Shown here: positions 784-62,405 of the stretch, piece after piece
How positions within the stretch are numbered: position 1 is the stretch's first letter
Layout: every line of letters begins with the position of its first letter
Assembly: GCA_043798915.1 (NCBI GenBank)
Contig: JAZDOG010000020.1
Location: 1 to 64,000 of the forward strand
Length of the DNA: 64,000 nt
From: Pseudomonadota bacterium
GTDB taxonomy: Bacteria; UBA10199; 2-02-FULL-44-16; JAAZCA01
Reading direction: 5' to 3'
Translations under genes and position numbers: made by a program
Notes under the pieces: generated by a model
Told to the model about the DNA's origin: nothing
The model's input: the letters and a program-made list of their open reading frames with translations, nothing else
Database searches by the model: none

Positions 784-1608
784 TCACTTCACATCAAGCT
801 TCATAAGCAAATAGCCCGCCCGCTCGAACGCATCCCTCTGAAGCAAGGCGCGTTCTTCAGCGTCAGAAATCTCCTCGAAGTCCGCGACGAATTTCGGACC
901 GACGTGTTTTTCAGATGCAAACTTCTCGGCGATCTTCTCCAGTCCTTCCTTCACGAGTCCATGCGACATGAACGGCTTGAAGGCATCGACCAAGGGATCG
1001 AGACCTCCCGGATAATTCTTGAGGCAATAGTAGATATCCCACGCGTCTTTTTCCTTCATGCGATCAGCGAGCGCCATACCTTTCATGACAATAAAGGGAA
1101 CAATCGACGCCACGCGCACGGTGACAGAATCCTTACCACCATCAGGGAGATATCCTTCGAGTTTGATTTCAACCGGATGCTCGAAAGCGAGATCGCAACC
1201 ACGTGCTTTGCGCGCGTGAACATCCTGAACCTTTTGATGTCTGTGTTTCTTCGTCGCTCCCTCATACTCACCGGCGAGGAGATCCACCTGAACCACGATC
1301 TCCTGTCCCTCGACAACAAGCTTTCGGAAGAAGATGAACGGCTGAGGACCTTCTTCGTAACCTCGGTCTTTGAGAAGTTTGAGGATCGTCTCATATCCTT
1401 CAGCCTCAATGCTGCGATGATTGAGTGCTAGGTCGACGTCCGTACTTCCCACGTGGGGAGATTCCTTCGACGGCAGAAGAAGCTCCGGAACCCAGCCGCC
1501 GACGAGCACGATGTCTTCGTGATAAGCACCGAGAAGATGCGTGAGTTCGAGCAGCACTGACCTCGCCGCGTGAACGGCGCGGGCCTCGTAATCTATTTTT
1601 GTCACCAT
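784..1608 (-). CDS. nucleotidyltransferase-fold protein, AbiEii-like type IV toxin
   Basis: IVLVGGW...GSTDVDL Pol-beta NTase motif and a KDAWDI motif; overlaps the end of the upstream AbiEi-like gene. Confidence 0.75.
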   Translation of the reverse strand: MVTKIDYEARAVHAARSVLLELTHLLGAYHEDIVLVGGWVPELLLPSKESPHVGSTDVDLALNHRSIEAEGYETILKLLKDRGYEEGPQPFIFFRKLVVEGQEIVVQVDLLAGEYEGATKKHRHQKVQDVHARKARGCDLAFEHPVEIKLEGYLPDGGKDSVTVRVASIVPFIVMKGMALADRMKEKDAWDIYYCLKNYPGGLDPLVDAFKPFMSHGLVKEGLEKIAEKFASEKHVGPKFVADFEEISDAEERALLQRDAFERAGYLLMKLDVK

Positions 1609-2654
1609 GTTGGTCGAACCTTCCTTTCCAAAATCGTCTGGGCCGCTTCGTCCCCGCGACCACGGAATCCTACGAGATCGAGATAGGCTTGAAGAGGAGA
1701 AACTATCTTCATTCCGTCAATTTCTTGCGAACCATAATAGACACCCGCATCCGAGGGAAAAGCAAGAACGACATTGGCCCCGCTCGTAACTGCTTTAAGT
1801 CCCAACTCTCGTGCAATGTCATCTGGATCACCGCTCACGTACGCCATCGCACGGTTTGATCTCACTGCCGGTGCATAACGTGAGGCTGCAGAAAATCCCA
1901 TGAGCGCATAAGGGATACCCTTCACGTCACAGAGTTTTGCAAGTTCGGCCTCAAATTCCGCAGGACTTTTGAGCGTGAAATATTCAAACCAGTTCTTGCG
2001 CGGCACATAAGCCACCGCCCATTTACCAAGAAGCACCTCGGCGTCTTTCAGGATAATCCCATCGTCATCCACGACGATCATTTCCTGATCTAAGAGAATC
2101 CTTTTCACATTGAACGCCTGACCGAGGCTCACGCCTGCTTCAGGGGCGAGCTTTGCTATGCGCCATTTCTTCTTTGGACCTTCGAGGAGGACGCGGAGCA
2201 CACGCGAGGCCTTCGGTGTGAAGAGCGAGCGTTGCTCACGCTTGGCCTTCGGTGAAGCGGGTTGCCCCGATCGTTCGATAAAAACGTCTCCGAAATTGAT
2301 TCGGCAATTGCCGGCGAAATCAACGAACCCGACATTCTCGGCCTCACAGATCGCGGCCGATTCTGCCGAGATATAAGGGGCCGCCACGACTCCATAGGCC
2401 TTCGGATAGGCGCGTTTGAGCATCAAAAGAGCGCCTACAGCCTCCCGCACGATTCGGGGCTGTCCACTCGACTTTACTTCGACGATAATCTCCAGTTTTC
2501 CCGTCGGAGTAGCCAGTTTTGCAAGAAAATCCCCATTAATTACCCCAGAAACAGCCAATTTCTCCATAGAATCGACAGAAATGGAAGTTCGCTCAAGACA
2601 GGTTTTTAAGGCCTCCTGAGCTTGAGTCTCCAATGTCTCCGCAGATACTTTCAT
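1602..2654 (-). CDS. AbiEi-family (AbiEi_2-like) antitoxin / transcriptional regulator
   Basis: VAAPYIS...GFVDFAGNC, an HTH-like LAPEAGVSLG segment and C-terminal VSPLQAYLDL...RGDEAA; paired with an NTase gene. Confidence 0.75.
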   Translation of the reverse strand: MKVSAETLETQAQEALKTCLERTSISVDSMEKLAVSGVINGDFLAKLATPTGKLEIIVEVKSSGQPRIVREAVGALLMLKRAYPKAYGVVAAPYISAESAAICEAENVGFVDFAGNCRINFGDVFIERSGQPASPKAKREQRSLFTPKASRVLRVLLEGPKKKWRIAKLAPEAGVSLGQAFNVKRILLDQEMIVVDDDGIILKDAEVLLGKWAVAYVPRKNWFEYFTLKSPAEFEAELAKLCDVKGIPYALMGFSAASRYAPAVRSNRAMAYVSGDPDDIARELGLKAVTSGANVVLAFPSDAGVYYGSQEIDGMKIVSPLQAYLDLVGFRGRGDEAAQTILERKVRPTW

Positions 2655-3114: not shown

Positions 3115-4854
3115 TCAGGCGTCGCACGGCGCTTCCCCCTGTCCCGCAAAGAGATCGATGAAACGGGGAGTTCTGATCGCCTCGCTTATGCCGTCGATGA
3201 TCATCCTGTCCGGGTTTGAAAAATAGCACACGACGTCCATCTCCTCGACCGCCGAGAGCCGGTGGGAGACGGTGATCACCGTCGAATCCCTGAAGCGCTC
3301 TTTGATGTTTTTTAATATGCGCCGTTCGCTTGCCGAGTCCATCGAGGACATGGCTTCGTCGAGGATCAATATCTTCGGCTGTTTGATGAGGACCCTCGCG
3401 ATCGCGATCTTCTGCTTCTGTCCCTCGGAGAGGCGGCAGCCGCCCTCGCCGACGACCGTCGCGCAGCCGCGGGGGAGGCGTTTGGCGAAATCCTCCACGC
3501 CGGAAAGCCTCGCTGCTTCCCGGACGTCCTCCTCCGTGGCATCCTGACGGCCGTATCGGATGTTGTTTTCGATGCTGTCGTTCCAGAGCAGCGGTTCTTG
3601 AAGGGCCATGCCGATCCCGCCCCGCAGAGATGAAAAGGTGAGGTCTTTGAGATTCTGGCCGTCGATGAAGACGCCGCCCGCCCACGGCTCGTGCATCCTC
3701 AGGAACATCATCAGGATCGTCGTCTTCCCGCAGCCGGAGGGACCGACCAGGGCGATATGGCCGCCGCCCTCGATCTCGAAGCTGACGTCTTTGATGGCAG
3801 GGTCGCCCGGCCTGTATCCGAAGCTGACGTTTCGAAAGGCCAGCGTTCCTCTCTTGAACGTCGCCGGCCTGGCATCCGCCGCTTCGATGACGACGGAATC
3901 GTCATCGAGGATATCCGCCACCCTCCGGCATGACACGAGTCCCTCAATCGTCGATTGGAACAGGGAAACGACATTGCCATGCAGCCCCACGAGCTGCCGC
4001 AGATAGACCATGATGGCGGTGAGTGCTCCCAGCGTCATCTCGCCGTGGATAACCAGATAGCCTCCATAGAGGCCGATCAGGCCGTTCGCCAGAAGCGTTA
4101 TGCCTTGCGCCGAGACGCTCTGGGCCAGCGCAATTTTTGTGTTCCTCATCTCGACCGACATGCTCTCCAGCAGCAGGCCGAGGTATTTTTTTGTGCTCGA
4201 CGTTTCCCTGCCGAAGGCCTTGATGACCTTCATGTTCGAAAATGTCTCTTCCAGGAATATCAGTATCTTTTGCGACAGCTCGTTGAAATATTGCCAGATG
4301 AGTTTCAGCCTCTTCCTCATCCAGAACGACGGCAGATACAGGAAGAATGAGAGGCCCACCGCCAGCATCGCCATCTTCCAGTTGAGAGAGAAGACGATCG
4401 CGGTGATGAACAGGGCCCTGGGGATGAGGGCCAGCATCTGCGGCGGGGAGTCTGTTACAAAATTTGCCACGTTGGCGATGTCGTGGCGAACACTATAGAG
4501 ATTTTCGCCGGTGGACCTTGCCTGAAACCAGCCGAAGGAAAATCTCTGGAGGCAGTCAAAGACCTTCTTGTTGAGGTCAAAACCCACCGACAGCCTTACG
4601 GTTTTTTTCAGAAGCTGCGCCGCCGCGCCGGAAAGGCTCGTGGCTGCAAAGATTCCCCCGCCCAGGAGGGCCAGGACGACGACGGTCTTGAAATCCTTCC
4701 CAAGAATTCCATCATCGACGGCCATCTTTGTCAGATAGGGGTTGATAAGGCTCATGAGGGCGCCGGCGCCGCTCAGGACCAGTATGGAAAACCACTTCCC
4801 GCGATATGGGAGGATGAGCCTGGAAAATCTGAAGAAGAGCTTTGCGCTCGTCAT
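3115..4854 (-). CDS. ABC exporter, fused transmembrane and ATP-binding domains
   Basis: TM helices, Walker A GPSGCGKTT, signature LSEGQKQK, Walker B ILILDE; start at 4854 overlaps the upstream stop (ATGA); no C39 peptidase domain. Confidence 0.9.
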   Translation of the reverse strand: MTSAKLFFRFSRLILPYRGKWFSILVLSGAGALMSLINPYLTKMAVDDGILGKDFKTVVVLALLGGGIFAATSLSGAAAQLLKKTVRLSVGFDLNKKVFDCLQRFSFGWFQARSTGENLYSVRHDIANVANFVTDSPPQMLALIPRALFITAIVFSLNWKMAMLAVGLSFFLYLPSFWMRKRLKLIWQYFNELSQKILIFLEETFSNMKVIKAFGRETSSTKKYLGLLLESMSVEMRNTKIALAQSVSAQGITLLANGLIGLYGGYLVIHGEMTLGALTAIMVYLRQLVGLHGNVVSLFQSTIEGLVSCRRVADILDDDSVVIEAADARPATFKRGTLAFRNVSFGYRPGDPAIKDVSFEIEGGGHIALVGPSGCGKTTILMMFLRMHEPWAGGVFIDGQNLKDLTFSSLRGGIGMALQEPLLWNDSIENNIRYGRQDATEEDVREAARLSGVEDFAKRLPRGCATVVGEGGCRLSEGQKQKIAIARVLIKQPKILILDEAMSSMDSASERRILKNIKERFRDSTVITVSHRLSAVEEMDVVCYFSNPDRMIIDGISEAIRTPRFIDLFAGQGEAPCDA

Positions 4855-5891
4855 AGCAGCTCGCGGCCGGCCTCGGCATTCGCCAGATCGCAGAAATACT
4901 CCACGGGGGCGTCCATGCGGCCAGTTTCCAGAAAGGCGATCCCCGGGCATATCCGGCAGCGATCCCGCACGGCGCAGCCGCGGCATTTTGAATCTGGAGC
5001 GATTTCCGCGTTTCTGTGGCGCGAAAATGCTTCGAGCGCCGCGCCGAGCCCCGTTTCGAGGAGGCGAAAAGAAGGTTCCCTGATCAGATGGCAGAAGAAG
5101 GCCTTTCCATAAGGGTCGACGTTGACGCCGCCGCCTTTTCCCCCCTGACATCGGAAGAGGGACTCGCTATGATTCCTCCTGCCATCCTCAGGGCAGGGCC
5201 GTTTTTCGGCCTTCCCTCTGAGACTCAAAATTTCGGCCGGGGAAATCCTCAAGCCGCAAGGATGGGCGTCGCCGTTGAGCCGGCAAAAGAGTCTGGTCGA
5301 AAAGCCATGCGGAACGCCTGCCTTCTTTGCGAATGAGCGTATCCCTTCGATCTCCGCAAGATTGTCCTTCGTGACCTGCGTCTTGAGTTTCAGGGGGAGC
5401 CCTGCCCCGGCGGCCAGCTCGATGCCGCGCATCGCCTTTTCAAAAGAACCCCTCTTCTGCGATATCCTTTCATACAGCGCCCCGGTGACGGCGTTGAGCG
5501 TGATCTCGATCGCAAATGGCGGGTTCTTTTTGAGAAACCCGGCCATCTCCTCGTCCATCCGGTATCCGTTGGTGAAGATCGTGATGATGAAGCCCCTCCT
5601 CTTCGCAAAGGAATATATCTCCCGGAAATCCCCGCGCGTGAGGGGGTCGCCGCCGGTGAAACAGACCCAGAGGACTCCGGCGCGCCCCATCTCCTTGAGG
5701 ACGGCCTTCACCCCTTCCGTGCATAATTCCTTTGCGGTCGAGGCTGCGTTGTTGTGGCAATCGGCGAAGCAGTAATTGCAGTGGTAGTCGCAGCCGAAGG
5801 TCAGCTCGTATTGGCAGACACTCGGGCATCTCCTCGAGCTATTCTCGTGGTGTGCGCGGCGGCTGAATGTCTTGTACAAAATTTTCTTCAT
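4851..5891 (-). CDS. radical SAM/SPASM domain protein (RiPP maturase 3)
   Basis: CDYHCNYC motif, FTGGDP, TNG; SPASM cysteines FRC...FFC...CRGCAVRDRCRICPG...YFC. Confidence 0.9.
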   Translation of the reverse strand: MKKILYKTFSRRAHHENSSRRCPSVCQYELTFGCDYHCNYCFADCHNNAASTAKELCTEGVKAVLKEMGRAGVLWVCFTGGDPLTRGDFREIYSFAKRRGFIITIFTNGYRMDEEMAGFLKKNPPFAIEITLNAVTGALYERISQKRGSFEKAMRGIELAAGAGLPLKLKTQVTKDNLAEIEGIRSFAKKAGVPHGFSTRLFCRLNGDAHPCGLRISPAEILSLRGKAEKRPCPEDGRRNHSESLFRCQGGKGGGVNVDPYGKAFFCHLIREPSFRLLETGLGAALEAFSRHRNAEIAPDSKCRGCAVRDRCRICPGIAFLETGRMDAPVEYFCDLANAEAGRELL

Positions 5892-6790
5892 ACCCTCCTG
5901 ACAAACTCGATGACCCTCTTGTCCTTGACGAACCCGAGCCGGTAGCAGGGGAGGCGCTCCACCAGCTCATGGCAGAAGGAAACGGTTTTTTCGAGCCCGC
6001 ACTTGTCCCAGAAGGGAGGGAAGATGGCCGGAAACAGCATGTTGAAGGATTCGCCGGGGGCGGGCCTTCTCACCGTGTTTTTTCTTGCGGGATGGATGAA
6101 AAAGACCTTGTCGATCGGCGCTGACATTCGCAACATGGGGTAGTCGTTGTAGCTCCCGCGCCATGGTGAATTGTGCATCCGGTAGCCGCCGCCTTCCCTG
6201 CGAACGATGACCCGGTCATCGTTGAGTATCTTTGCGCCGCTGTTCTCTCTCCAAATCCTGGCCGTCGTGCTCTTTCCGCTTTGGGATTTTCCGGCGAAAA
6301 TCACGCCGCCGCAAATGGCGTCTCTGAGCGCTGCGGCATGGGCGATTATGCCGATGTCTCTCTGCGCCATATAGTTGATCAGGAGGACCTGCAGGAAATT
6401 ACAAACGACCTCACCTACAGTCCATTGGGGTATTTTGCCTTTGGACACCACGTGCGCCGTGGCCCTGTCACAGGCCTCATTGACGAAGGCGACCTGGCGG
6501 CGCGCCCTGTAAATATATGAATGATCCTTTTTCCCCCACCTCCAGTCTTCGTCGCCGCTCTCAAAGCGCCGCGTGATGAACAGGGATTCCACGCCGCGGA
6601 CCGCCGGCCTTCTCCTGGCCGCCTTCACGTCAATATAAATGTGCGGTTGTCCGTTCCCTTCGTAAAAGTAATGAGGTGGTTGATAGCCTGTCAAGCCTTC
6701 TATTTTCGGCTTGCTCTTGAGCCGGAGCTCGCAGTCGCCCTGCATGGAGACGATCAGACCGGCGATCTTCAATTTAATTCCCGTTTTCAT
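5888..6790 (-). CDS. HprK-related kinase (ScmC/PadeK-like)
   Basis: HAAA, Walker A GKSQSGKST and ILNDDR motifs in HPr-kinase order. Confidence 0.8.
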   Translation of the reverse strand: MKTGIKLKIAGLIVSMQGDCELRLKSKPKIEGLTGYQPPHYFYEGNGQPHIYIDVKAARRRPAVRGVESLFITRRFESGDEDWRWGKKDHSYIYRARRQVAFVNEACDRATAHVVSKGKIPQWTVGEVVCNFLQVLLINYMAQRDIGIIAHAAALRDAICGGVIFAGKSQSGKSTTARIWRENSGAKILNDDRVIVRREGGGYRMHNSPWRGSYNDYPMLRMSAPIDKVFFIHPARKNTVRRPAPGESFNMLFPAIFPPFWDKCGLEKTVSFCHELVERLPCYRLGFVKDKRVIEFVRRV

Positions 6791-7883
6791 ATCGCCGCAT
6801 CCTTTTCAGGGCGCGCTCCCGGCTTGCCGGGTCGCAGGCGGAGAAATCCTTCGCGTGCAGCCAGCCCATTGCCGGGCACCGTTTGCAATAAGGCTCAAGC
6901 CTGCATCGGCTGCACCCGCAGCCTTTGCTTCGCTCCGCATCCCTGGTCAGTTTTCTCAGCCTCATCCAGCCGCGGCGGAAACGCTTTCCAAGGATGTCAT
7001 ATCTCGGGTAATCGATCAACACGCACATCTTGAGTTTGCCGTCAGGGGTAATCGCCGCCTGGCGTTCGCCCGCGCCGCAACGGAAGAGCTTTGCGGGCCT
7101 CTTTCTATGAGAGATGTCATTGCGAGGAGCGAAGCGACGTGGCAATCCCGTGCTGACCACTGTTTCAAGGGGATCGCCACGTCGCCCTGCGGGTTCCTCG
7201 CGATGACAGCCGGGTTCGGAAACATTCCCATCAAGGGAGAGGGAACCCCTGTATTTATACGGCTCCATGGATCCATCCAGTCGCGGCGAAAGGGTGTCGT
7301 CGAGCCGGTGGAGCGCGCCCAGAGAAGAGGCGAAGGCGCGCACGTCATCTATTTCAATTTCATTTTCCTTCAAGAGGCACGTTTTGAATCCGAGCTTCAC
7401 GCCTTTGCGGTGAAGGTTCTTCACGGCACTGAACACCTTCTCCCTCGCTCCCCTGACGCCGGCGATTTTTTCGAACGCCGTCCGGCTCATTGCCGGCAGC
7501 GTGATGTCGATCTTGTTCGGATTCAGGCGGGCGAACTCCCGGGCCGCTCGCGCATCTATCAGCGACCCGTTGGTGTAGAGGATGAGCTGAAAACCCCTCC
7601 GTTTCGCGTGCCACATGATATCGAAGATGTCCTCCCTGAGGAGCGGCTCTCCGCCGGTGAACCCCAGATAGAGACAGCCGGCATCGCGGAGCTGGTCCAG
7701 AAGGGAGAACACCTCTCCTGTCGAAAGCTCGGGCCGGCGCTTGAACCCTTCCGGCACGTAACAGTGCCCGCAGCGGAAGTTGCAGCGATAGGTGAGTTCG
7801 AACATCACCCGGAGCGGGATGCCCCTCCTCGCCGCGCCCTCGCGGAGGCGGGCGTGGAAGTTATGATACGATCGATGGATCAT
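6774..7883 (-). CDS. radical SAM/SPASM domain protein (RiPP maturase 2)
   Basis: CNFRCGHC, FTGGEP, YTNG; SPASM FRC...KMC...CSRCRLEPYCKRCP...AC; contains an in-frame palindromic insert. Confidence 0.9.
   Translation of the reverse strand: MIHRSYHNFHARLREGAARRGIPLRVMFELTYRCNFRCGHCYVPEGFKRRPELSTGEVFSLLDQLRDAGCLYLGFTGGEPLLREDIFDIMWHAKRRGFQLILYTNGSLIDARAAREFARLNPNKIDITLPAMSRTAFEKIAGVRGAREKVFSAVKNLHRKGVKLGFKTCLLKENEIEIDDVRAFASSLGALHRLDDTLSPRLDGSMEPYKYRGSLSLDGNVSEPGCHREEPAGRRGDPLETVVSTGLPRRFAPRNDISHRKRPAKLFRCGAGERQAAITPDGKLKMCVLIDYPRYDILGKRFRRGWMRLRKLTRDAERSKGCGCSRCRLEPYCKRCPAMGWLHAKDFSACDPASRERALKRMRRYENGN
7115..7208. repeat. palindromic element inside the rSAM coding sequence
   Basis: Nested inverted arms tgtcattgcgagga/tcctcgcgatgaca and gcgacgtggcaatccc/gggatcgccacgtcgc. 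Confidence 0.85.
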
Positions 7884-8958
7884 TCATGCGCCGGAACGCC
7901 TTCTCCGCCATCCCGCAATAATAGGCTGCAGGGGCCTCCTCGTCGCCGGTCTCCAGAAAAGATGTGGCCGGGCAGATGCCGCAGAGGGGCCTGAGCCGGC
8001 AGCTGCGGCATCTGGATTTCGTTTTGAATTTTTCCTTCAGGAGTTTCGGAAACTCCTCGTAGAAACCCTGCCGAAAGGGCACCTGCTTCAGATCGACGCC
8101 GAACCTCCTGGTCAGGGGGCACATCTTCAAAAAGCCAAAAGGGTCTATCGTGAACCCCGTCTTCCATTTCTCGCAATGATAAAGATGCTCCCTGTCCTTG
8201 TCCTTCGCCGGCCTGCGTGCCCTCTTCCCGGAGGGTGCCCCCTCACAATATTTTTTCCACATATCCTTATCCTGCCTCCTGACATCCTCGATCTCTTCGA
8301 ACGTGAGTCTCAATTTCGTCGGCGCGAGGTCGCCGTTGAGCCTCGGCAAGATCATGGGGTCGTACTGGAAGCGATGTTTTTTCCGGTCCGGCGCGCCGGG
8401 GAGCCCATCGGCGAACGCCTTGATCCTTCCGATCTGATGCTGGTTCTGTTTCATGCAGTTCGTCTTGATCATGAAGGGAATCTTTTCGTCGAAGAGCCTC
8501 CCGATGTTTCTCATCGTGCGCGCAAACGAGCCCTTCACCTGCGTGATCTCCTCGTAGACGTCCGCGGTGATGCCGTTGAGCGTTATCTCGACGGACTCCG
8601 GGGGGGAGGCGGCGAGATGGGAGATGATTCTTTCAGTCAGGGCATGCGCGCCGGTGTAGATGGTGACGATGAATCCCTTCCTCCTGGCGTAGTCGTAGAG
8701 CTCCAGGAAATCGGGCCTCACGAGGGGGTCGCCGCCGGTGAAGACGAGCCAGAGGCAGCCCTCCTCGCGGAGCCCATCGAGGATCTCTTTCCAGCCTTTG
8801 GCGGGGAGCTCCCGTTTTCTGTCCTCGCTGCCCTTGCAGAAGCAATGTATGCAGTTGAGGTCGCAGCTGTAGGTCAAACTGATATATCCCTTGAGCGGGG
8901 CGCGCTTCTTCTTGCGGTGTACCCAATCGCAAAAATAGACATGGCTGCGGTTCTTCAT
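7861..8958 (-). CDS. radical SAM/SPASM domain protein (RiPP maturase 1)
   Basis: CDLNCIHC, FTGGDP; SPASM YHC...KMC...CRSCRLRPLCGICP...YYC; GGAG RBS before ATG 8958. Confidence 0.9.
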   Translation of the reverse strand: MKNRSHVYFCDWVHRKKKRAPLKGYISLTYSCDLNCIHCFCKGSEDRKRELPAKGWKEILDGLREEGCLWLVFTGGDPLVRPDFLELYDYARRKGFIVTIYTGAHALTERIISHLAASPPESVEITLNGITADVYEEITQVKGSFARTMRNIGRLFDEKIPFMIKTNCMKQNQHQIGRIKAFADGLPGAPDRKKHRFQYDPMILPRLNGDLAPTKLRLTFEEIEDVRRQDKDMWKKYCEGAPSGKRARRPAKDKDREHLYHCEKWKTGFTIDPFGFLKMCPLTRRFGVDLKQVPFRQGFYEEFPKLLKEKFKTKSRCRSCRLRPLCGICPATSFLETGDEEAPAAYYCGMAEKAFRRMNDPSIVS

Positions 8959-9006
8959 CAGAGACTCCGGGAAGAGCAATACGGAAGGTCAATGCCTTGG
9001 TAAGGC

Positions 9007-9210
9007 TCAGCTAGTTGCAGCATACCAGACGGGTTCTACACACATACCTATCGCCGTAAACTTCTCGTAGGGCGTCCAGCAAGAGGAGCTTTCGTTCCAG
9101 TATTGACCCCCGTAAACTGGGTCGCTCATACAGTTGCATTCCAGCACTGCCTGCTCGGGGTTGAGCTCCACGCGGGTGACCACCGGCCTGAATTTCGGTT
9201 TCTTGGGCAT
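9007..9210 (-). CDS. putative RiPP precursor peptide (67 aa)
   Basis: Strong RBS aaagggggggagat-ATG; basic leader MPKKPKFRPVVTRVELNPEQAVL; core with 4 Cys, 3 Trp, 4 Tyr and C-terminal Ser; lies between the PqqD-family gene and the first rSAM gene. Confidence 0.85.
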   Translation of the reverse strand: MPKKPKFRPVVTRVELNPEQAVLECNCMSDPVYGGQYWNESSSCWTPYEKFTAIGMCVEPVWYAATS

Positions 9211-9245
9211 ATCTCCCCCCCCTTTTGCAGAACAACTATAATAAC

Positions 9246-9349
9246 TTCCCCTCCTTTGTAAGGAGGGGACAGGGGAGGTAGATCAGCATTGAAACAGCGG
9301 TCTACCCCACCCTGACCCTCCCCTTACAAAGGGGAGGGAAACGTCACTA
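9246..9349. repeat. REP-like quasi-palindromic element, copy 2 (inverted relative to copy 1)
   Basis: 102/104 identical to the reverse complement of 11-114; its end overlaps the PqqD-family stop codon. Confidence 0.9.
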
Positions 9350-9631
9350 AACCAGGACCGCCTTGATCTCCTTTAAGTCCTTCAGGAGTTTTTTCATCTC
9401 CCTCTCCACCTCTTTGGGCGCGGAGCCAAACTCCTTCATGACCTTCTTTCCGATCCCCCCGGCCGTCGTCTTTCCGTCGATCATCTCCCAGACCCGCGAG
9501 GCCGGTTTGTTGAGCGTGTAGATGCAATTGAGCTCTTCCGAGGTCTTGTAGATGGGCAGGAGGATTGTCTCATCGCCGATCACGCGCGAGACCACGTCCG
9601 GATTCCTGCGCAGTATGGCGCCTTCACGCAT
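9347..9631 (-). CDS. PqqD-family RiPP recognition element (RRE)
   Basis: 94 aa; VVSRVIGDETILLP...IYTLN..ASRVWEMIDGK...LLKDL pattern; AGGAGGGG RBS. Confidence 0.9.
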   Translation of the reverse strand: MREGAILRRNPDVVSRVIGDETILLPIYKTSEELNCIYTLNKPASRVWEMIDGKTTAGGIGKKVMKEFGSAPKEVEREMKKLLKDLKEIKAVLV

Positions 9632-9720
9632 ATCCCCTCCTGTTGGAATGCCTTCCCCTGAATCCCGTGTATCTGACACGCGCGTATTTTTCAATAGATT
9701 TTTTGCCGGAGAGGTCCCCC

Positions 9721-10122
9721 TTAAGATTTTATCCATTGGTTCAGTCTGACCGCACCCCATATCCCAAGGCGGATCAGGGGGGCGAATACAACGATGGACC
9801 TGTTCACAAACCGATGCGCCCGGCTTGTCAGATTCACGACCGTGCCGTTCTTGAGGATTCCGACCACCTTTCCCAGACAGCGGTCCGGCGAGACGCATTC
9901 AGCGGTCCCGGATGTGTCGCCGCGCGCATAGAGGCGGTAGCCGCTGCCCTCTTTCGCCCTTCGAACGAGCCGGTGACAGACGAACTTCTCGCCGGCGCGG
10001 TACAGGATGATGTCCCCCACTTTCAGATCACCGATGGGGGCCTCTCTTATTATCAGGCGCTCGCCCTGCTTGATGAACGGCCACATGCTGAATCCGGCCG
10101 TATCGAAGAATGAAACCTCCAT
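9721..10122 (-). CDS. S24/S26-family (signal-peptidase-like) peptidase, candidate leader peptidase
   Basis: GFSMWPF (catalytic Ser), GDIILY, CHRL and ARGD motifs; no N-terminal TM anchor; AGGAG RBS. Confidence 0.85.
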   Translation of the reverse strand: MEVSFFDTAGFSMWPFIKQGERLIIREAPIGDLKVGDIILYRAGEKFVCHRLVRRAKEGSGYRLYARGDTSGTAECVSPDRCLGKVVGILKNGTVVNLTSRAHRFVNRSIVVFAPLIRLGIWGAVRLNQWIKS

Positions 10123-10165
10123 GGAAAATCTCCTGTTTCGGTATTGAATGGTGGTGGGATATATG

Positions 10166-10195
10166 CCTGACATCATGGACGTGTCAACTTCAGGA
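10166..10195 (+). repeat. 30-bp imperfect direct repeat, left copy
   Basis: cctgacatcatggacgtgtcaacttcagga, 26/30 identical to 12734-12763. Confidence 0.75.
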
Positions 10196-10450
10196 CATAG
10201 TGTGTGGGCGCGCCGGTTTGAAAAACCAGGTATTAAATTGTACGCACTTATAGCACTTTTTCAATATAACTACAAATTAGTTGATATAACCTCAATATTT
10301 GCGCTGTTATCACAAGTGAATTTGTGCAATGGTCTTTGTTGTTCTGTAAGTCACCACGATCTGGTATCTGTGCCTATACGGGTTGAGTTGTCACTTCCAT
10401 TGAAAGAGTGCTGAGCTGTTACGAAAGACGAAGAAAGGGGGGAAGGGGCT

Positions 10451-11671
10451 ATGGGTTTAAAGATGATCGCCTATACTGAACCAGAGATGGAGAAAATGCT
10501 CTCTGATCTCGAGACCGATAACGCCGAGCGAAAAGAATCCTTTCGGGGTGATGCGCCGACCAAGGTGCGCGAAGCCGTCTGTGCGTTTGCCAATGATTTG
10601 CCAAACCACGGCAAGCCAGGCATCGTCTTCGTCGGCGCGCGAGACGACGGAAATCCATCAGGGCTTGCGGTGACCGATGAGCTTCTTCGCCAGCTCGCAG
10701 ACATCAAGACTGATGGCAACATTGTTCCTCCGCCGACGCTGACTGTTTCGAAACACGTTCTTCAAGGCAAGGAAATGGCGGTCATAACCGTTTGGCCCTC
10801 TGATTCCCCACCCGTGAGCTACAAGGGCCATATTTGCATTCGTATCGGCCCACGCCGTTGCATTGCCTCAGCGCAGGACGAGCGGCTTTTAAACGAAAAG
10901 AGACGGCACGGGGATCGTCCATTTGACGTTCGGGCAGTTCCGTCGTCTGCTCTGACAGATCTGGATCGACGGCGATTTGAGGAAGAGTACTTGCCTGCCG
11001 CCTTTGCATCCGATGTCCTTGCCGCAAACGAGCGCAGTTACGAGCAACGCCTTGCTGCGACCAAAATGGTGGTTGCGGCTGATGAGCCGACACCCACCGT
11101 GCTCGGTCTCCTGGTGCTGAGTGTGCGAACGCGCGATTTCATTCCAGGGGCGTATGTTCAATTTTTGCGGATTGCCGGTCGGGAGCTCGCCGACCCCGTT
11201 TCGGATGAACAAGTGATTGACGGCTCTGTGGTGGATGTGCTCCGACGCATAGATGAAAAACTAAGCTCACATAATCGCACCGCGGTAGACCTGACAGGGG
11301 GAAGTCTGGAACGGCGCTCTTCCCTTTATCCAATGCCCGCCCTCCAGCAGCTCGTGCGCAATGCAATCATGCACCGAAGCTACGAAGCGACAAATGCCCC
11401 CGTGCGTGTGACATGGTATGACGACCGCATTGAAATCATCAACCCGGGCGGTCCCTATGGAGCTGTTACTAAGGAGAACTTTGGCCAGCCCGGCGTCAGC
11501 GATTACCGCAATCCCAGCCTTGCAGAAGCGCTGCGTGTTCTTGGCTTCGTGCAAAGATTCGGCGTAGGCATTGCCACAGCGCGCAGGGAACTACAGGCAA
11601 ACGGGAATCCGTTGCCCGAGTTCGAAGTTACTGCGTCACACGTCGGTGTCACTCTGAGGTCTGCAACATGA
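10451..11671 (+). CDS. Schlafen/AlbA_2 domain plus HATPase-like (RecG-associated) protein
   Basis: ETDNAERKES, VCAFANDL, GIVFVGARDDG (AlbA_2); LVRNAIMHRSY, DDRIEIINPGG, YRNPSLA, QRFGVG (HATPase_c_4-like). Confidence 0.85.
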   Translation: MGLKMIAYTEPEMEKMLSDLETDNAERKESFRGDAPTKVREAVCAFANDLPNHGKPGIVFVGARDDGNPSGLAVTDELLRQLADIKTDGNIVPPPTLTVSKHVLQGKEMAVITVWPSDSPPVSYKGHICIRIGPRRCIASAQDERLLNEKRRHGDRPFDVRAVPSSALTDLDRRRFEEEYLPAAFASDVLAANERSYEQRLAATKMVVAADEPTPTVLGLLVLSVRTRDFIPGAYVQFLRIAGRELADPVSDEQVIDGSVVDVLRRIDEKLSSHNRTAVDLTGGSLERRSSLYPMPALQQLVRNAIMHRSYEATNAPVRVTWYDDRIEIINPGGPYGAVTKENFGQPGVSDYRNPSLAEALRVLGFVQRFGVGIATARRELQANGNPLPEFEVTASHVGVTLRSAT

Positions 11672-12654
11672 AAACCATCGCCTTTTTTAACAACAAGGGT
11701 GGTGTAGGAAAAACCTCGCTAGTCTACCACCTTGCCTGGATGTACGCTGATCTCGGCCTCAGTGTGATCGCGGCGGATCTTGACCCACAAGCCAATCTCA
11801 CTACCATGTTCCTGGACGAGGACGCCCTCGAAGCGCTCTGGCCGGAGGGAATGCCAGGACGGACTATTCTCGCCCCGCTGCTGCCGCTTTTGGAGGGAAG
11901 AGGTGGAATAGAGGAACCACATGTCGAGGACATCGCTGGCATAGGGCTCGTAGCCGGAGATCTTGCGCTTTCCGGATTCGAAGACGAACTGAGCCAACGA
12001 TGGCCATACTGCCTTGAAGGCGATGCCCGAGCCTTCCGAGTAATAGGTGCGTTCCATCAGGTAATTGCGCTAGCAGCACAACGTCGCGCGGCCGACGTCG
12101 TTCTAATCGACGTTGGTCCAAATCTCGGCGCGATCAACCGCGCAGCCTTGATTGCTGCCGATCATGTAGCAATTCCCCTCGCTCCGGATCTTTTTTCTCT
12201 CAAGGGACTTCAAAACCTTGGGCCCCGCTTGCGGGAGTGGCGTAAGGGATGGACAGAGCGCCTTAAAAAGTCTCCTGTTGGATTGGAGTTGCCTCAAGGG
12301 CACATGGCTCCGCTGGGCTATGTCGTAATGCAGCATGCAGTTCGTCTCGATAGACCTGTGAAGGCTTATGATAAGTGGATGGTGCGAATCCCAAACGTGT
12401 ACCGTGAGGCGGTTCTTGCGGAGGTAAAGACCCAGACAGATGTCGCTATCAACCGAGATCCTTACTGTTTGTCCACATTGAAACACTATAGAAGCCTTAT
12501 GCCTCTCGCCCAAGAAGCACACAAACCCATGTTTTCGCTAAAAGCCGCCGACGGAGCGATCGGCGCTCATGCAAAATCTGTCCAAGACTGCTATCGTGAT
12601 TTTCGTGAGCTTGCTATCGAAATTGCAAAACGGGCTGGAGTCACATTGCCGTAA
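11668..12654 (+). CDS. ParA/Soj-family ATPase
   Basis: FFNNKGGVGKTS deviant Walker A, DLDPQANL, LIDVGPNLG; ATGA-coupled to the AlbA gene; no parB nearby. Confidence 0.9.
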   Translation: MKTIAFFNNKGGVGKTSLVYHLAWMYADLGLSVIAADLDPQANLTTMFLDEDALEALWPEGMPGRTILAPLLPLLEGRGGIEEPHVEDIAGIGLVAGDLALSGFEDELSQRWPYCLEGDARAFRVIGAFHQVIALAAQRRAADVVLIDVGPNLGAINRAALIAADHVAIPLAPDLFSLKGLQNLGPRLREWRKGWTERLKKSPVGLELPQGHMAPLGYVVMQHAVRLDRPVKAYDKWMVRIPNVYREAVLAEVKTQTDVAINRDPYCLSTLKHYRSLMPLAQEAHKPMFSLKAADGAIGAHAKSVQDCYRDFRELAIEIAKRAGVTLP

Positions 12655-12685
12655 TGGGGGTTAGCTTACGAACGGGAACGGTTGT

Positions 12686-13780
12686 TTGGTGGATGGCTAT
12701 GCAGAAATAGGTTTTTACATTGATAATGAGATACCTGCCGTCATGGATCTGTCAACTTCAGGATGCGATTGGAACTCTGTCGTTGAACATGCCATCGAAA
12801 ACGGCACGGCGACGCTCCTGTTTTCCCAATTGGCCTCGAAAGGGTTTCATGGCATGCCGCCGGCGGTCGTAGACCGCTTGAGGAAAATTTACTTATCCAC
12901 GCTCATCAGCAACCGGAGGATGATGGCCGATGCGGCCCATGCCGTGCAGCTGCTCGAAAACGGCGGCGTCAAGACTGTGCTCATAAAGGGGATGGCGATG
13001 CTGGCGGACGTCTATGAGGACGCCGCGCTGCGCCGGACCTCGGACGCCGATATCCTCATCCATTTTGAAGACCTGGATAGAGCGAAGAAGATTCTCATGT
13101 CCGACGGCTTTGCCTGCGATCCCTTGGCCGACAAGTCGTCCTTTGCGAACGAGCTGGGTTTTGGAAGAAAAAACACAGTCTTCGTTGAGGTCAGATGGGA
13201 CATGTGTCATCACGACCGCTTCCGGTTCTGCAACCGCTTCAGCATGGGGGGCATCTTCACGGGCGCCGCCGCCGCCGATCTCAATGGCGCCGCCGTAAAG
13301 ATTCCCTCCCCGGAATATCAATTGCTCATCGCCGCCTTTCACCAATCGTTTGTCCACCATTTTGAAAAAAAGATGTGGCTGTATGATATCGTGGCGATCG
13401 CTGACCGCTACGGCAAGGACTTGAGCTGGGAGAGAGTCGTGCAGCTCTCAGAAACCTGCGGAATGCGGCGCGCCCTCGCGTACACGTTCCTTCGCGCGCG
13501 CCGGGAGTTCAATTTCAGCATGAAGCTTCCGCTGGAGATATCGCGCCTCCGGGTCCGCCTGCTGGATGCCTGCTCGCGCCGCCGTTACGGTTTTCTTGTG
13601 GAACTTCTCCTGCTGGACTGCCTGAAAGATCTCCTTCTCTATGCCGCGGGCGTCCTCTGGCCTTCCGACGGCTGGCTCAAACACCACTACCGGACTTCGT
13701 CGACCAGACCCTGGCGCTTTCTGCATCCCTTTCTGGTCGCAGCGGGCGCCATCAAAAAAATCCTCGGGATATGGAGTTGA
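12686..13780 (+). CDS. nucleotidyltransferase family protein (NTP_transf_5-like, as in lasso/RiPP loci)
   Basis: VLIKG..LADVY...LRRTSDADILI, VEVRW and WLYDI motifs; start uncertain (12686 or ATG 12743). Confidence 0.85.
   Translation: MVDGYAEIGFYIDNEIPAVMDLSTSGCDWNSVVEHAIENGTATLLFSQLASKGFHGMPPAVVDRLRKIYLSTLISNRRMMADAAHAVQLLENGGVKTVLIKGMAMLADVYEDAALRRTSDADILIHFEDLDRAKKILMSDGFACDPLADKSSFANELGFGRKNTVFVEVRWDMCHHDRFRFCNRFSMGGIFTGAAAADLNGAAVKIPSPEYQLLIAAFHQSFVHHFEKKMWLYDIVAIADRYGKDLSWERVVQLSETCGMRRALAYTFLRARREFNFSMKLPLEISRLRVRLLDACSRRRYGFLVELLLLDCLKDLLLYAAGVLWPSDGWLKHHYRTSSTRPWRFLHPFLVAAGAIKKILGIWS
12734..12763 (+). repeat. 30-bp imperfect direct repeat, right copy
   Basis: cctgccgtcatggatctgtcaacttcagga; spans the likely ATG (12743) of the nucleotidyltransferase gene. 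Confidence 0.75.
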
Positions 13781-13783
13781 TGC

Positions 13784-14404
13784 ATGCTATATCAAAGAAT
13801 ATTGAGAAACCTTGCGCAGCTGGCGCAGGGCAAAATCAAGGCGCGAAAAATCCCTTCGAAGATAACCAATTTTATTCTCAGCTATAGTGAATCGCTCAGG
13901 CAGATCAAGAGAAGCAGATTCGCTATCGACGGCGTGATATTCAGGCCCGTTGAACCAAATGACGGATCGCGCTACGCCGAGTTTTTGCGCAATTATTATT
14001 TTCAGGAAGACATGCCTTACACAGGCGAGGCGGTAGCGGTCCCACATTGCAATGCGGAATACTTTTATCACGTCGCCGTGTATCAAAACAAGATCGTAGG
14101 AGGGGTGGGGATGGGCAGAATCCCGTCTGACACCGTTGACCTTTGGCGTATGGGAGGGTTGTCTGTTTTGCGTGATTTGCGCGGATACGGGATTGGCGAA
14201 AGGTTGCTGAAAACAGCAATTTCTGCCGTCGGGGAGGGGGACGCCATCATATTTCTCAATGTGGATAAAAATAATATGCCGGCGGTGAAATTATATAAGA
14301 AAGCCGGGTTTCATATGGCCGGCGGGCGGGAAAAAACCGTGATAAAAGATATCGGATACGCGCCGGGGAAAATAAGCATGGTGTTGGGGCGCATCCTCAA
14401 TTGA
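13784..14404 (+). CDS. GNAT-family N-acetyltransferase
   Basis: LSV...LRGYGIGERLL motif A and NMPAVKLYKKAGF motif B. Confidence 0.9.
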   Translation: MLYQRILRNLAQLAQGKIKARKIPSKITNFILSYSESLRQIKRSRFAIDGVIFRPVEPNDGSRYAEFLRNYYFQEDMPYTGEAVAVPHCNAEYFYHVAVYQNKIVGGVGMGRIPSDTVDLWRMGGLSVLRDLRGYGIGERLLKTAISAVGEGDAIIFLNVDKNNMPAVKLYKKAGFHMAGGREKTVIKDIGYAPGKISMVLGRILN

Positions 14405-14458: not shown

Positions 14459-16084
14459 TCAGATTTTCCCGTTCATCTCATATACATCAAAATGCCCGAT
14501 CTCCTTCACCTTTAAGAAATTGTCGAAGATGTAGGATTTGAGCAGCGGAAAATCGTCAAGGCCGTCGTAATTATCAGGATCAATTCTATGGAGGACCACT
14601 ATCTCGACTTCATTTTTTTTGAGGTCATCCACGATCCAATTGTCCAGCCTGGCATCGTAGACCTCCGGATACGTCAACCTCTTTGCGAATTCGACCAGCG
14701 GCTGGGGAGAAGGCTTGCCCAGCGCGCCATAGAGCATGGCAAATAAATATGGAAAGGTAAAAAAATTCCTGTCCTTTTTCCGAAGATAGCTGGCCAGATT
14801 GTCAATATTCTCCGCTTTGTACGGATTGTCTTCGGTCGATGACTCAGCCCATTTCATGGGCTGCAGGTTGGGTTCCTTCAGCGCATTGAGGGACATGATG
14901 GGGGTAATCCACCCGCTTTTGAAAGCGTATCTGACGCCCCTGACCGCACAGACTATGAGCAGCATGGACACCAGCACGATTAAAATCTTTCTTGGAGGAA
15001 TCTTCAATTCACTGCGAAGCACTCCGGCGCTTTCGGGTATGGACAAATCAAAAAAATGGAACAGGAGGCCCGTCTCAAGTGAAGCGACGATGCCCACGAA
15101 GGAATACGATGTGGGGTAGACGGAGGTGTAAAAGAAGAAAAGCTGAAAGAGGAAGGCGCCTATGCACAGGACGGAAGATATGAATGGGAGTCTCCATGAG
15201 GATCTCACCTTTTTAAAATTGCAGAAATACAATGCAACCACGACGGCCGGAACTGCGATGGTCAGCAATGCATATGGCTTGTGCATCTTCAGGGATTCGT
15301 TGAAAAGGGTTCCAAATCTTCCCGCGCCCACGCCGAATGGAAGGAGGATGTAATAACGCAGAAAATTATTGAGATCCGATTTATATACAAGCCAGGACAA
15401 AAAAAGCGAAGCCGCCGCAGAAATGCCAAGGAGGAAAACGGCGATGCGTCCCCATGCGGGCCTCGCTTCGGAAATCGATGCTGCGATGATCAGCATAAGA
15501 AATAAAGGGATGGCAAAAAAACCCGTGTTCTGCTTCCCCAATAGTGTTGCGAATGCAAAGATTCCGCCTGTGAAGAGAAGCGCCATGTTGATGATGGACC
15601 GCCGTGATTTGCCGCAGAGCGCGGGGAGGATGAGCGCTATCGCTATGAATGAGAACGCCAGCGATATCTGCTCCGGCACCGGTATGCCGAAGGGCGCATT
15701 GAACCAGATTGCGGTGAGGAAACCCGCGATGTACGACAGATATTTCTGTGGAAAGAGGATTCTGACCGTCATCATGCTGCAGAGCGTCGCGACGACACTC
15801 ATAGATGCCGCACAGACAAGGAACGCCACATAGTTGACGCCCAGGAGCTTGAAAAAAAGCGCCACAAGCCAGAACAACGCCAGGCTATGCTGGGAGACGA
15901 AGTCCTTGAACAGGATCTGGCCTGAGAATACCCTGTAACCGCCATCGAACGTCAATGCCGGGCTCAGCGGCATGGCAACCTGGCCTCCTATATAGCTCAC
16001 GATGAACGCCGCTGATAGTATGAGCAGGATCACCGCAAGATCAAGCAGCTTGGAGCTCAGACGCGACGGATTGCTATTTGCCAT
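14459..16084 (-). CDS. polytopic membrane protein, possibly GT-C-type glycosyltransferase
   Basis: About 12 hydrophobic segments; GYRVFSGQILFKDF loop; KQNTG motif; soluble C-terminal domain. Start set at MANSN because the longer ORF begins inside the MITE. Confidence 0.65.
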   Translation of the reverse strand: MANSNPSRLSSKLLDLAVILLILSAAFIVSYIGGQVAMPLSPALTFDGGYRVFSGQILFKDFVSQHSLALFWLVALFFKLLGVNYVAFLVCAASMSVVATLCSMMTVRILFPQKYLSYIAGFLTAIWFNAPFGIPVPEQISLAFSFIAIALILPALCGKSRRSIINMALLFTGGIFAFATLLGKQNTGFFAIPLFLMLIIAASISEARPAWGRIAVFLLGISAAASLFLSWLVYKSDLNNFLRYYILLPFGVGAGRFGTLFNESLKMHKPYALLTIAVPAVVVALYFCNFKKVRSSWRLPFISSVLCIGAFLFQLFFFYTSVYPTSYSFVGIVASLETGLLFHFFDLSIPESAGVLRSELKIPPRKILIVLVSMLLIVCAVRGVRYAFKSGWITPIMSLNALKEPNLQPMKWAESSTEDNPYKAENIDNLASYLRKKDRNFFTFPYLFAMLYGALGKPSPQPLVEFAKRLTYPEVYDARLDNWIVDDLKKNEVEIVVLHRIDPDNYDGLDDFPLLKSYIFDNFLKVKEIGHFDVYEMNGKI

Positions 16085-16173
16085 GCCATGCCCTTTGATG
16101 CGGTATCTAAGCTCAATTGAACCGCCGTGCATGCAAACATATTCCGGCGGGCAGTGCAACGGGACTTTGATGG

Positions 16174-16353
16174 TTACTAAGGAGAGCACATTATACCTCG
16201 CATCTTGCGGCCGCCAATGGCCTGCGACTGCGTCAGATTTCGCAAAAAGTGCTCAACGTAGCTTTGGCTACGCCTCCGCGCTTTTTGCTCATCTTCCTTG
16301 TCTCGGCTCATTGTCGTTGCAATCTGCGAGGTATAATGTGCTCTCCTTAGTAA
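16174..16353. mobile_element. MITE-like element, 180 bp, with perfect 29-bp terminal inverted repeats
   Basis: ttactaaggagagcacattatacctcgca / tgcgaggtataatgtgctctccttagtaa; internal hairpin cgtagc-tttg-gctacg; no transposase; possible TA target duplication. Confidence 0.85.
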
Positions 16354-32440: not shown

Positions 32441-33640
32441 ATGAAAATAGGCATATTTGTAGATATATTGACGAACAAGAAAACGGGTGTCGAATACTAT
32501 ACGCAGAACCTGCTGCAGCATCTGCTGGAAATGGACATAAAAAACCAATATTGCCTTATACGGCACGACGGAGTCGGGGTCGATTTTGAATCTGAAAAAA
32601 AATATACGGAAATAGTCTGTAAAAAGAGGAATCAGTCGATATTGTTCCTGCGCAGGTTTATCAATGTGTTGCCGCGACAAATAACCCTGACCGTAATCAG
32701 GCAGATATTGAAATTCGTGCCGTCAATTTATTATTCCACCAACAAGAAGTTGAGGTCATTTGATATTTTGTTTTCGCCTAATTTTGGCTTGGAGCTGGAG
32801 ACCAATCCCCGCGCATATCAGATCGTCATCGTATATGACATAACTCCCATCCGCGTGCCTCAATGCCATAACAAAGAGGTGGGCATATTTTTCAATGCTG
32901 TCTTAGGCGATATTCTGAAGAAGGCGGACAAGATAATTGCCATAAGCGAATTTACAAAGCGCGATCTGATAACGCATTATGGCATTGTTGAGGAAAAAAT
33001 CAGCGTGATCTATCCTGGTTTAAACCGGCACATGACGCGGACGCCCAAAAGTTGCGATATTGTCAAAAAGTATAATCTTCCTGAAGATTTTATTCTCAGT
33101 TTTGGAACGCTTGAACCGAGAAAAAATGCCATTGCCGTCGTGAAATCATTCGCTCTGTTAAAGAAAGATGGGCGCAGGGAAATGCTTGTCATAGCTGGCA
33201 GAAAAGGATGGGGTTACGAGGACGTCTTTGTAACACTCAAACAGTTGGGGTTGGAGAAAAGTGTCTTGTTTACGGGGTATGTCGATGAGGAGGACGTTCC
33301 GGGACTTTATGGCGCGGCGAGATTGCTCGTGTACCCGGCCCTTTACGAAGGGTTCGGGCTCCCTGTAATAGAGGCGATGTCATGCGGGTGCCCGGTGATC
33401 ACATCCAGCACATCCTCGCTTCCTGAGGCGGGAGGGGATGCGGCGCTATACATCGATCCGACTGATGAAAAACAAATTTATGAAGCCATGAAAAAAGTGA
33501 TCGGTTCAGAAGAATTGAGGGGAGATATGATCATGAAGGGGCTCATTCAGGCATCCAAATTCAACTGGGATGAATCGGCCAGGAAGGTCATCAAAATCTT
33601 TGAAGAAGCAGAAAGGGCCATGCATAATGAACGAATCTGA
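32441..33640 (+). CDS. glycosyltransferase family 4 (mannosyltransferase-like)
   Basis: [23 protein letters not shown]. Confidence 0.92.
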
Positions 33641-62360: not shown

Positions 62361-62405
62361 AGATCAGAGTCTTTTATACTGAGTCAGTTTTTACGCAAGG
62401 CGGGG

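Follow-up and report, generated by a model that had tools for sequence, protein, structure and literature searches.

A probable biosynthetic gene cluster for an uncharacterised peptide family, combining three radical SAM enzymes with a kinase-like protein and a signal-peptidase-like enzyme

The stretch of DNA analysed here (the window) is 64,000 nucleotides long and comes from a genome assembly of a Pseudomonadota bacterium (GCA_043798915.1, contig JAZDOG010000020.1, positions 1 to 64,000). At 3115-10176, on the minus strand, it carries an operon of eight co-oriented genes, recognised from the listing of open reading frames (ORFs) and from Pfam and NCBIfam scans. In operon order these encode a peptidase, a PqqD-type RiPP recognition element (RRE; RiPP stands for ribosomally synthesised and post-translationally modified peptide), a precursor of 67 amino acids (aa), two radical S-adenosylmethionine (SAM) enzymes (rSAM1 and rSAM2), a kinase-like protein, a third radical SAM enzyme (rSAM3) and an ATP-binding cassette (ABC) exporter. 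The region is probably a complete biosynthetic cluster for an uncharacterised RiPP family, equipped for radical SAM cross-linking, kinase action, further tailoring, leader removal and export. The genes of the operon are as follows.

9721 to 10176, minus strand: signal-peptidase-I-like putative leader peptidase of the S24/S26 clan, archaeal or SipW type (TIGR02228, E 1.8e-10; Peptidase_S24, E 1.1e-4)
9347 to 9631, minus strand: discrete PqqD-family RRE, 94 aa (PF05402, 39.7 bits against a cut-off of 23.4)
9007 to 9210, minus strand: precursor peptide, 67 aa (leader homology, profile family)
7861 to 8979, minus strand: rSAM1, with a SPASM-like seven-Cys C-terminal domain (Radical_SAM, 68.2 bits)
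6774 to 7883, minus strand: rSAM2, the second paralogue (Radical_SAM, 89.7 bits)
5888 to 6790, minus strand: ScmC-family (PF27840) P-loop protein, putative peptide kinase, 300 aa (precomputed annotation; PEPCK/HprK fold)
4851 to 5891, minus strand: rSAM3, the third paralogue (Radical_SAM, 76.7 bits)
3115 to 4854, minus strand: MsbA/HlyB-type ABC exporter, fused permease and ATPase, 579 aa, without a peptidase domain (ABC_membrane, ABC_tran)

Start sites were inspected gene by gene. The peptidase could begin at 10176, or at 10122 behind an AGGAG motif. The PqqD ORF spans 9347-9898, and its likely start is the ATG at 9631, which lies behind AGGAGG, 90 nt downstream of the peptidase gene, and gives a protein of 94 aa. 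The precursor gene has a strong G-rich ribosome-binding site, and rSAM1 has two candidate starts, TTG 8979 and ATG 8958. For the exporter, whose ORF spans 3115-5151, the likely start is ATG 4854, giving 579 aa; its best NCBIfam matches were type I secretion and MsbA-like models, none of which reached its cut-off. An initial annotation of this DNA had already named these genes, and the ORFs, Pfam and NCBIfam place every one of them at or near the position it gave. The end-to-end overlap that it described from rSAM1 through the exporter was likewise borne out, with 23 nt shared by rSAM1 and rSAM2, 17 nt by rSAM2 and the kinase gene, 4 nt by the kinase gene and rSAM3, and 4 nt (ATGA) by rSAM3 and the ABC gene. 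Upstream of the precursor gene, a gap of 136 nt holds a hairpin with a 10-bp stem and a promoter-like site (9235-9269, minus strand), which may give the precursor a transcript level of its own.

Eighty loci were fetched around relatives of the kinase-like protein and annotated by single-sequence phmmer queries, a procedure that undercounts (the PF14907 gene of locus L036, for example, was seen by Pfam alone). Twenty of them, mostly from Omnitrophota, were classed as close, having a kinase match at E<1e-45 and flanks of 5 kb or more on either side. PqqD was present in 19 of these close loci, an ABC exporter in 16 and the nucleotidyltransferase in 12. The initial annotation had proposed a survey of neighbourhood conservation and had tied its reading to the presence of a conserved small peptide in homologous loci; the survey finds three radical SAM genes in 14 of the 20 (with four in 2, two in 3 and one in 1) and a leader-bearing ORF in 18. 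Moreover, the window's exact gene order is repeated in several loci (L037, L043, L044, L052). The arrangement is far beyond chance, because the same set and order of genes appear in many independent loci. Among the 18 distant well-flanked loci, which come from Deltaproteobacteria, Aminicenantes, Nitrospirota, KSB1 and Chloroflexi, 14 hold a single rSAM, 17 a PqqD, 12 a peptidase and 12 a nucleotidyltransferase, and these mostly one-rSAM loci resemble a less elaborate relative of the window's system.

For every protein of the cluster, the closest relatives are found in Omnitrophota, at 44-63% identity. In the window's own phylum, a kinase relative occurs in 7 of 93 genomes including this one, and the other six (of 92) are 26-36% identical. 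A recent transfer from Omnitrophota was considered and rejected: at 57.7% the guanine-plus-cytosine (GC) content of the cluster equals that of the genome, related loci lying at 35-51%, and no branch of the kinase tree with a support of at least 95 puts the window's kinase in any clade. Horizontal spread of the cluster is plausible.

Many related loci also contain, just upstream of PqqD, an ORF of 470-535 aa that has no Pfam match at 1e-12 and is not in the window (L015:1548-3080, L018:5288-6766, L021:4493-6034, L024:6845-8320, L034:1302-2714, L043:6054-7574, L047:1893-3497 and L052:6042-7478). In L018, L021, L024 and L043 it stands between peptidase and PqqD.

The small ORF is a genuine precursor and founds a large family. 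It consists of a conserved leader (residues 1-24) followed by C25-x-C27, C44, C57 and the C-terminal S67. A first search returned three relatives, which share the leader M[PG][KR][KR]PKF[KR]P.[VI]T.V[EK]LNPEQAVL.C.C and have unrelated cores. When ORFs with the leader motif were collected from the 80 loci, 47 unique peptides were obtained, 45 of them with a Ser or Thr terminus; the leader is followed by C-x-C in 37 and by CC in 7. In an alignment of 37 members, residues F7, P9, L16, P18, E19, Q20, A21, V22, C25, C27 and C44 (window numbering) are invariant and the rest of the core is variable. An NCBIfam scan of these 37 sequences gave no meaningful family, the best E values being 0.087 and 0.14 for one member each. 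A profile of the alignment found 834 representative proteins at E<=0.001, one for each 50%-identity cluster, and 680 at E<=1e-10. Residue statistics were taken from the best 150 of the 834. Every one of these 150 has C-x-C, followed in 140 by Y, W or F (in the window's own precursor by Met), and they contain three to six Cys, most often four. The median spacings are regular, at 22 residues between CxC and the third Cys, a further 13 up to the fourth, and 19 between the last Cys and the C-terminus. The terminal residue is Ser in 143 and Thr in 7, in peptides where Ser and Thr together make up 18% of all residues. The terminal residue is not what selects the representatives, since most profile matches stop well before the C-terminus of the profile.

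The three radical SAM enzymes are 28-34% identical to one another. A tree built from the 149 rSAM ORFs of all loci places them in separate clades of 33, 35 and 39 sequences, and the clades of rSAM1, rSAM2 and rSAM3 have local supports of 99, 98 and 99, which marks the trio as old and non-redundant. All three clades keep CX3CX2C together with seven C-terminal Cys in the pattern C-x17/18-C ... CX2CX5CX2C ... C. In the rSAM1 clade CX3CX2C is kept in 32 of 33 sequences and each of C269, C287, C324, C327, C333, C336 and C355 in 33 of 33, and in the rSAM3 clade the CX3CX2C motif and all seven C-terminal Cys are kept in 39 of 39. No curated NCBIfam cut-off was reached by any of the three. Sequence comparison puts SkfB, PqqE, SuiB and CteB nearest among solved proteins, with matches confined to the rSAM core. 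An AlphaFold2 model of rSAM1 (predicted local distance difference test score, pLDDT, 89.9) matched SkfB (E 1.5e-14), SuiB, PqqE, CteB and anSME over the full length, at E values from 1.5e-14 to 4e-11, and the fold matches also include the epimerase EpeE. The window's enzymes thus resemble the solved rSAM/SPASM or Twitch maturases (SkfB 6efn, CteB 5wgg/5why, SuiB 5v1q, PqqE 6c8v, anSME 4k36) in full-length fold, Cys-rich substrate and seven-Cys C-terminal domain, but differ from them in their low identity (15-20%), in having no fused N-terminal RRE and in serving one precursor with three paralogues.

For the kinase-like protein, the local Pfam scan gave no match; precomputed annotation places PF27840, a family named ScmC, on it and on 97 of 101 homologues. 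Its AlphaFold2 model (pLDDT 89.5) matched phosphoenolpyruvate carboxykinase (PEPCK) at E 1.4e-6 and HPr kinase/phosphatase 1knx at E 2e-4 in Foldseek. Residues S169, G172, K173 and S174 of the Walker A motif, as well as N190-D191-D192-R193, are invariant in 26 kinase-like sequences. Its structural neighbours include proteins of about 410 aa that carry an ScmC-like fold as a fusion with PqqD (mostly in Bacillota) or together with Peptidase_S24 (in Bacteroidota), and such fusions would tie kinase, RRE and peptidase together.

Upstream of the operon, on the other strand, lie four further genes.

10451 to 11671, plus strand: AlbA_2/HATPase_c_4 gene (Pfam)
11668 to 12654, plus strand: ParA-like ATPase gene (Pfam)
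12686 to 13780, plus strand: PF14907 nucleotidyltransferase, probable tailoring enzyme, not co-transcribed with the operon (PF14907, 141.8 bits)
13784 to 14404, plus strand: GNAT acetyltransferase, of doubtful membership in the pathway (Acetyltransf_1, E 8.8e-15)

The nucleotidyltransferase is the sole copy in the genome (tblastn, E<=1e-5). All 29 relatives examined keep its residues G102, D120, D122, H219 and D234, and in 24 of 38 well-flanked loci a relative is found no more than 10 kb from the kinase gene. The GNAT gene starts 3 nt downstream of it. The initial annotation had seen both genes as divergent from the operon: they are indeed upstream on the opposite strand, but not directly so, as the AlbA_2/HATPase_c_4 and ParA-like genes, which overlap each other, stand between (10451-12654). 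AlbA_2 paralogues are dispersed across seven other contigs of the same genome. The acetylation also suggested for the product found no backing, a GNAT gene being present in 3 of the 80 loci and in none of the 20 close ones.

The peptidase scored 40.9 bits on TIGR02228, the model of archaeal-type signal peptidase I, whose cut-off is 51.85. The Ser of G.SM.P is present in 23 of 24 orthologues, and all 24 have H50-R51 and D69; we take these residues to match the Ser/His/Asp arrangement of SipW-type signal peptidases. The PqqD protein is 47-63% identical to 23 orthologues, a high identity that fits the very conserved leader. A comparison with Protein Data Bank (PDB) sequences gave nothing significant for it (TbiB1, E 0.38; 'PqqD family protein' 9x8z, E 0.6). 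When PqqD was co-folded with precursor residues 1-40, the score was 0.50, as against 0.00 for the best of three controls, with at least 95% of contacts agreeing between runs and a partner pLDDT of at least 54. Of 157 solved complexes, 116 attain the pass mark of this assay, as do 2 of 215 mismatched pairs; 18 of the 157 solved complexes pass with a score of 0.60 or under, as do both passing mismatches. The co-fold gives weak support to leader binding, and the pass may reflect likeness only, because RRE-leader complexes have already been solved.

The closest characterised system is that of the linear polyphosphorylated peptides (LPP) of Bacillota, made by LppA/B/K/S/N/D (Popov et al., Nat Commun 2026, PMC13381572). 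There, according to the accessible part of the paper, a signal-peptidase-I-like leader peptidase works with an RRE, a kinase, a nucleotidyltransferase and an exporter. The window's cluster shares with it a signal-peptidase-I-like peptidase of archaeal type (here below the model's cut-off) that adjoins a discrete RRE; an HprK-fold kinase, a PF14907 nucleotidyltransferase (outside the operon here) and an MsbA-like exporter, these being likenesses of fold or family; and a conserved leader joined to a variable C-terminal part, with a location in polysaccharide loci in both systems. It differs from LPP in the three rSAM/SPASM-type genes within the operon, radical SAM enzymes being nowhere mentioned in the accessible text of PMC13381572. 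In addition, the LPP leader motif is YxxPxVLxHQxIxFETxxS, whereas no aromatic residue stands three positions before the Pro here; the LPP site is Ser3 and the system is reported in that text to be restricted to Bacillota, whereas the relatives here are mostly from Omnitrophota; and the precursors described here have a Cys-rich core bearing CxC and an invariant terminal Ser/Thr.

Phosphorylated lasso peptides, namely paeninodin with its kinase PadeK and pseudomycoidin with PsmK and PsmN (PMC6993621, accessible part), offer a second comparison. In pseudomycoidin, that text reports, PsmK phosphorylates the C-terminal Ser and requires D158/D159, and PsmN, which requires D134/D136, is needed for a hexose on the phosphate. 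Common to these systems and to the window are a precursor ending in Ser, a discrete PqqD-type RRE, an ABC exporter, an HprK-type kinase with a DD metal site and a DxD nucleotidyltransferase, a resemblance of fold and motif. The leader peptidase here is instead of signal-peptidase type, and any macrocyclisation would be the work of the radical SAM enzymes. Pfam found no lasso cyclase or B2 protease among the genes of 3115-14404. The initial annotation's statement that a lasso cyclase is lacking also agrees with the wider genome, which is 97% complete: Asn_synthase is absent from the window's contig, with matches on contigs C35, C67, C49, C28 and C76 only, and the lasso B2 protease PF13471 was not found. 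The cluster is therefore partly like LPP and the phosphorylated lasso peptides, yet it fails their defining leader motif, linear product and lasso cyclase. Open-access papers and bioRxiv preprints yielded no paper on a product of this architecture, as the initial annotation had expected, and the accessible parts of Omnitrophota metagenome surveys on RiPPs and radical SAM enzymes contain no description of this cluster. This is a real and large family, uncharacterised at the bench, of which the window holds one ordinary member.

In light of what is observed directly, namely the gene set, the conserved catalytic motifs, the folds, the precursor family and the recurrence, we can propose a pathway. 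The 67-aa precursor would be made first and its conserved leader held by the discrete PqqD protein, while the Cys-bearing core is modified by the three radical SAM/SPASM-type enzymes, each with a function of its own. The chemistry that appears most likely is the formation of Cys-derived thioether cross-links, because of the invariant Cys and the SkfB- and CteB-like folds, with C-C cross-links as the main alternative. The ScmC-family kinase-like protein could then phosphorylate the invariant C-terminal Ser/Thr, as the HprK-type kinases PadeK and PsmK do; by this analogy, phosphorylation of the last serine is probable. Another group may be attached to the phosphate by the PF14907 nucleotidyltransferase, in the manner of the PsmN-dependent hexosylation of pseudomycoidin. 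The signal-peptidase-I-like enzyme would remove the leader, as LppS does for LPP, perhaps by a cut behind C-x-C, and the ABC transporter would export the product.

Several points weigh against this pathway. Cross-link type, phosphorylation site and cleavage site are all inferred, and the C-terminal site is drawn from lasso peptides by analogy only, because LppK targets Ser3 of the core (PMC13381572, accessible part). The kinase-like protein matched no solved protein in a PDB sequence search (E<=1), the peptidase was found in 8 of the 20 close loci by its single-sequence query, and the nucleotidyltransferase lies 2.5 kb off on the opposite strand, behind two unrelated genes. A look-up of sequencing runs for 5000-10200 listed none, nor any RNA holder. 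The Pfam SPASM model matches none of the three rSAMs at E<=0.01, so that three paralogues of SPASM type, as first annotated, stand by their three clades, their fold and their Cys but not by that model; the SPASM assignment rests on the seven conserved C-terminal Cys of each paralogue and on the predicted fold of rSAM1. In addition, rSAM2 bears an in-frame repeat insertion that might affect the enzyme. A simple scheme of one rSAM for each invariant Cys was rejected, as the single-rSAM relatives L055, L064 and L076 also have three-Cys precursors.

The last observation, that the Cys count does not follow the rSAM count, bears on what the radical enzymes do. They might instead bridge the aromatic residue after CxC through C-C or C-O cross-links, or epimerise residues, leaving the Cys as disulfides or metal ligands, and both the frequency of Y, W or F at that position (140 of 150 representatives) and the presence among the fold matches of the C-C cross-linkers SuiB and PqqE and the epimerase EpeE, beside thioether synthases, speak for such chemistry. 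Nevertheless, the three invariant Cys and their regular spacing (medians 22, 13 and 19) are typical of peptides cross-linked through Cys donors, and the window's own peptide has a Met where the aromatic residue would be needed, so that we regard this version of the same cluster as somewhat unlikely. A related doubt attaches to the ScmC-family protein, which could phosphorylate an internal Ser/Thr, or act as an ATP-dependent scaffold or adenylating partner of the rSAMs, with the terminal Ser/Thr serving export or recognition by another enzyme. Its gene lies between rSAM2 and rSAM3 and overlaps both, it scores 22-30 bits only on HprK-related and ScmC NCBIfam models, and the Ser3 site of LppK is itself internal. 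We consider this unlikely, given that all 150 representatives end in Ser or Thr, that HprK-type kinases phosphorylate the terminal Ser in paeninodin and pseudomycoidin (PMC6993621, accessible part), and that the P-loop and the DD motif, whose counterpart D158/D159 is needed for PsmK activity, are invariant.

The locus might also be a decaying or silent copy, with rSAM2 disrupted by its repeat and the tailoring genes cut off by mobile or defence-type inserts. The repeat is a nested palindrome at 7112-7210 (arms 7115-7128/7195-7208 and 7134-7149/7170-7185), distinct from an element at 16174-16349, and the same genome has partial copies of it on contigs C53, C12, C3, C48, C91 and C35; the AlbA_2 and ParA-like genes that part the operon from the nucleotidyltransferase recur in none of the 80 related loci; and an AbiEi/AbiEii pair flanks the exporter. 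However, none of the eight reading frames is interrupted, the overlaps and ribosome-binding sites are preserved, the repeat keeps the frame and falls in a linker (residues about 221-256) that varies in length among orthologues, all catalytic Cys are kept, and the cluster shares the genome's GC content, so decay seems improbable. In the SynChlorMet cassette, several rSAM/SPASM enzymes accompany an ScmC-family P-loop protein and a protein related to PqqD. The initial annotation had noted a resemblance to it, and this holds insofar as the kinase-like protein belongs to the Pfam ScmC family and as the best NCBIfam matches of that protein and of PqqD are ScmC and ScmD. That the window carries this cassette proper (TIGR04248-TIGR04251, a bioinformatic definition), the small ORF not being a substrate, is nonetheless very hard to credit. 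All four equivalog models score far below their cut-offs, at 29.9 against 125 for ScmC (TIGR04249), 18.7 against 100 for ScmD, at best 74.6 against 400 for ScmE and at best 69.7 against 400 for ScmF; the window adds a peptidase, an exporter and an identifiable precursor to its three rSAMs; and the small ORF that defines the large family stands beside the enzymes in 18 of 20 close loci.

If the proposed pathway of cross-linking, phosphorylation, leader removal and export is right, the cluster joins two peptide-maturation logics that have been studied apart, rSAM cross-linking and the kit of signal peptidase, RRE, kinase and nucleotidyltransferase. With three conserved, non-redundant rSAM paralogues at work on a single short peptide, the system holds promise of new cross-link chemistry. 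The recognisable precursor family, with its leader, CxC and terminal Ser/Thr, moreover makes hundreds of clusters from uncultured lineages testable by heterologous expression.

The rest of the window, from 14.4 to 64 kb, is a polysaccharide locus with a GC content of 49%, holding GT1, GT2, GT4, PMT_2-type membrane transferases, Bac_transf, a flippase, Poly_export and Wzz. In the 20 close loci, 161 unlabelled ORFs with a length of 220 aa or more were scanned; 17 of these loci have at least one glycosyltransferase or polysaccharide gene within 10 kb, and 9 have Poly_export, GNVR or Wzy_C. In several loci (L017, L040, L043, L052) a GT1 of 520-560 aa lies inside or right after the operon. The LPP and paeninodin clusters of Bacilli are likewise located in polysaccharide loci (PMC13381572, accessible part). 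This repeated exopolysaccharide setting of the rSAM family and of LPP points to a surface or biofilm role, and the product probably works in concert with the exopolysaccharide machinery next to it. A bolder version, which we think decidedly unlikely, is that the bridged peptide uses its terminal Ser/Thr phosphate as a handle on which nucleotidyltransferase and glycosyltransferases build or attach a glycan, giving a peptide-phosphoglycan conjugate rather than a free antibiotic-like peptide; if true, the conjugate would be part of, or prime or cap, the exopolysaccharide of the surrounding locus. The GT-C-like membrane protein at 14459-16189 was tried as a partner of the nucleotidyltransferase and dropped, being unlike the PMT_2 proteins of L043 and L040 (E 3.0 and 0.058) that sit beside a nucleotidyltransferase or peptidase.

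Some further features of the neighbourhood may be recorded. Directly downstream of the exporter gene, the AbiEi/AbiEii pair (784-2654, minus strand) resembles a type IV toxin-antitoxin system, and AbiEii genes also occur within two related clusters (L017:6622-7404 and L035:6494-7540). Apart from the peptide operon, the polysaccharide locus contains four more radical SAM genes on the plus strand (17275-18792, 26620-27618, 33570-35147 and 39475-40983), two of them B12-binding and two with a Pfam SPASM match. Finally, a set comprising an AAA_22 ATPase, HD_5, Poly_export and Wzz/GNVR, located in the window at 60364-64000 and 19506-20678, is also present beside the related peptide clusters L018, L024, L027, L030 and L047.

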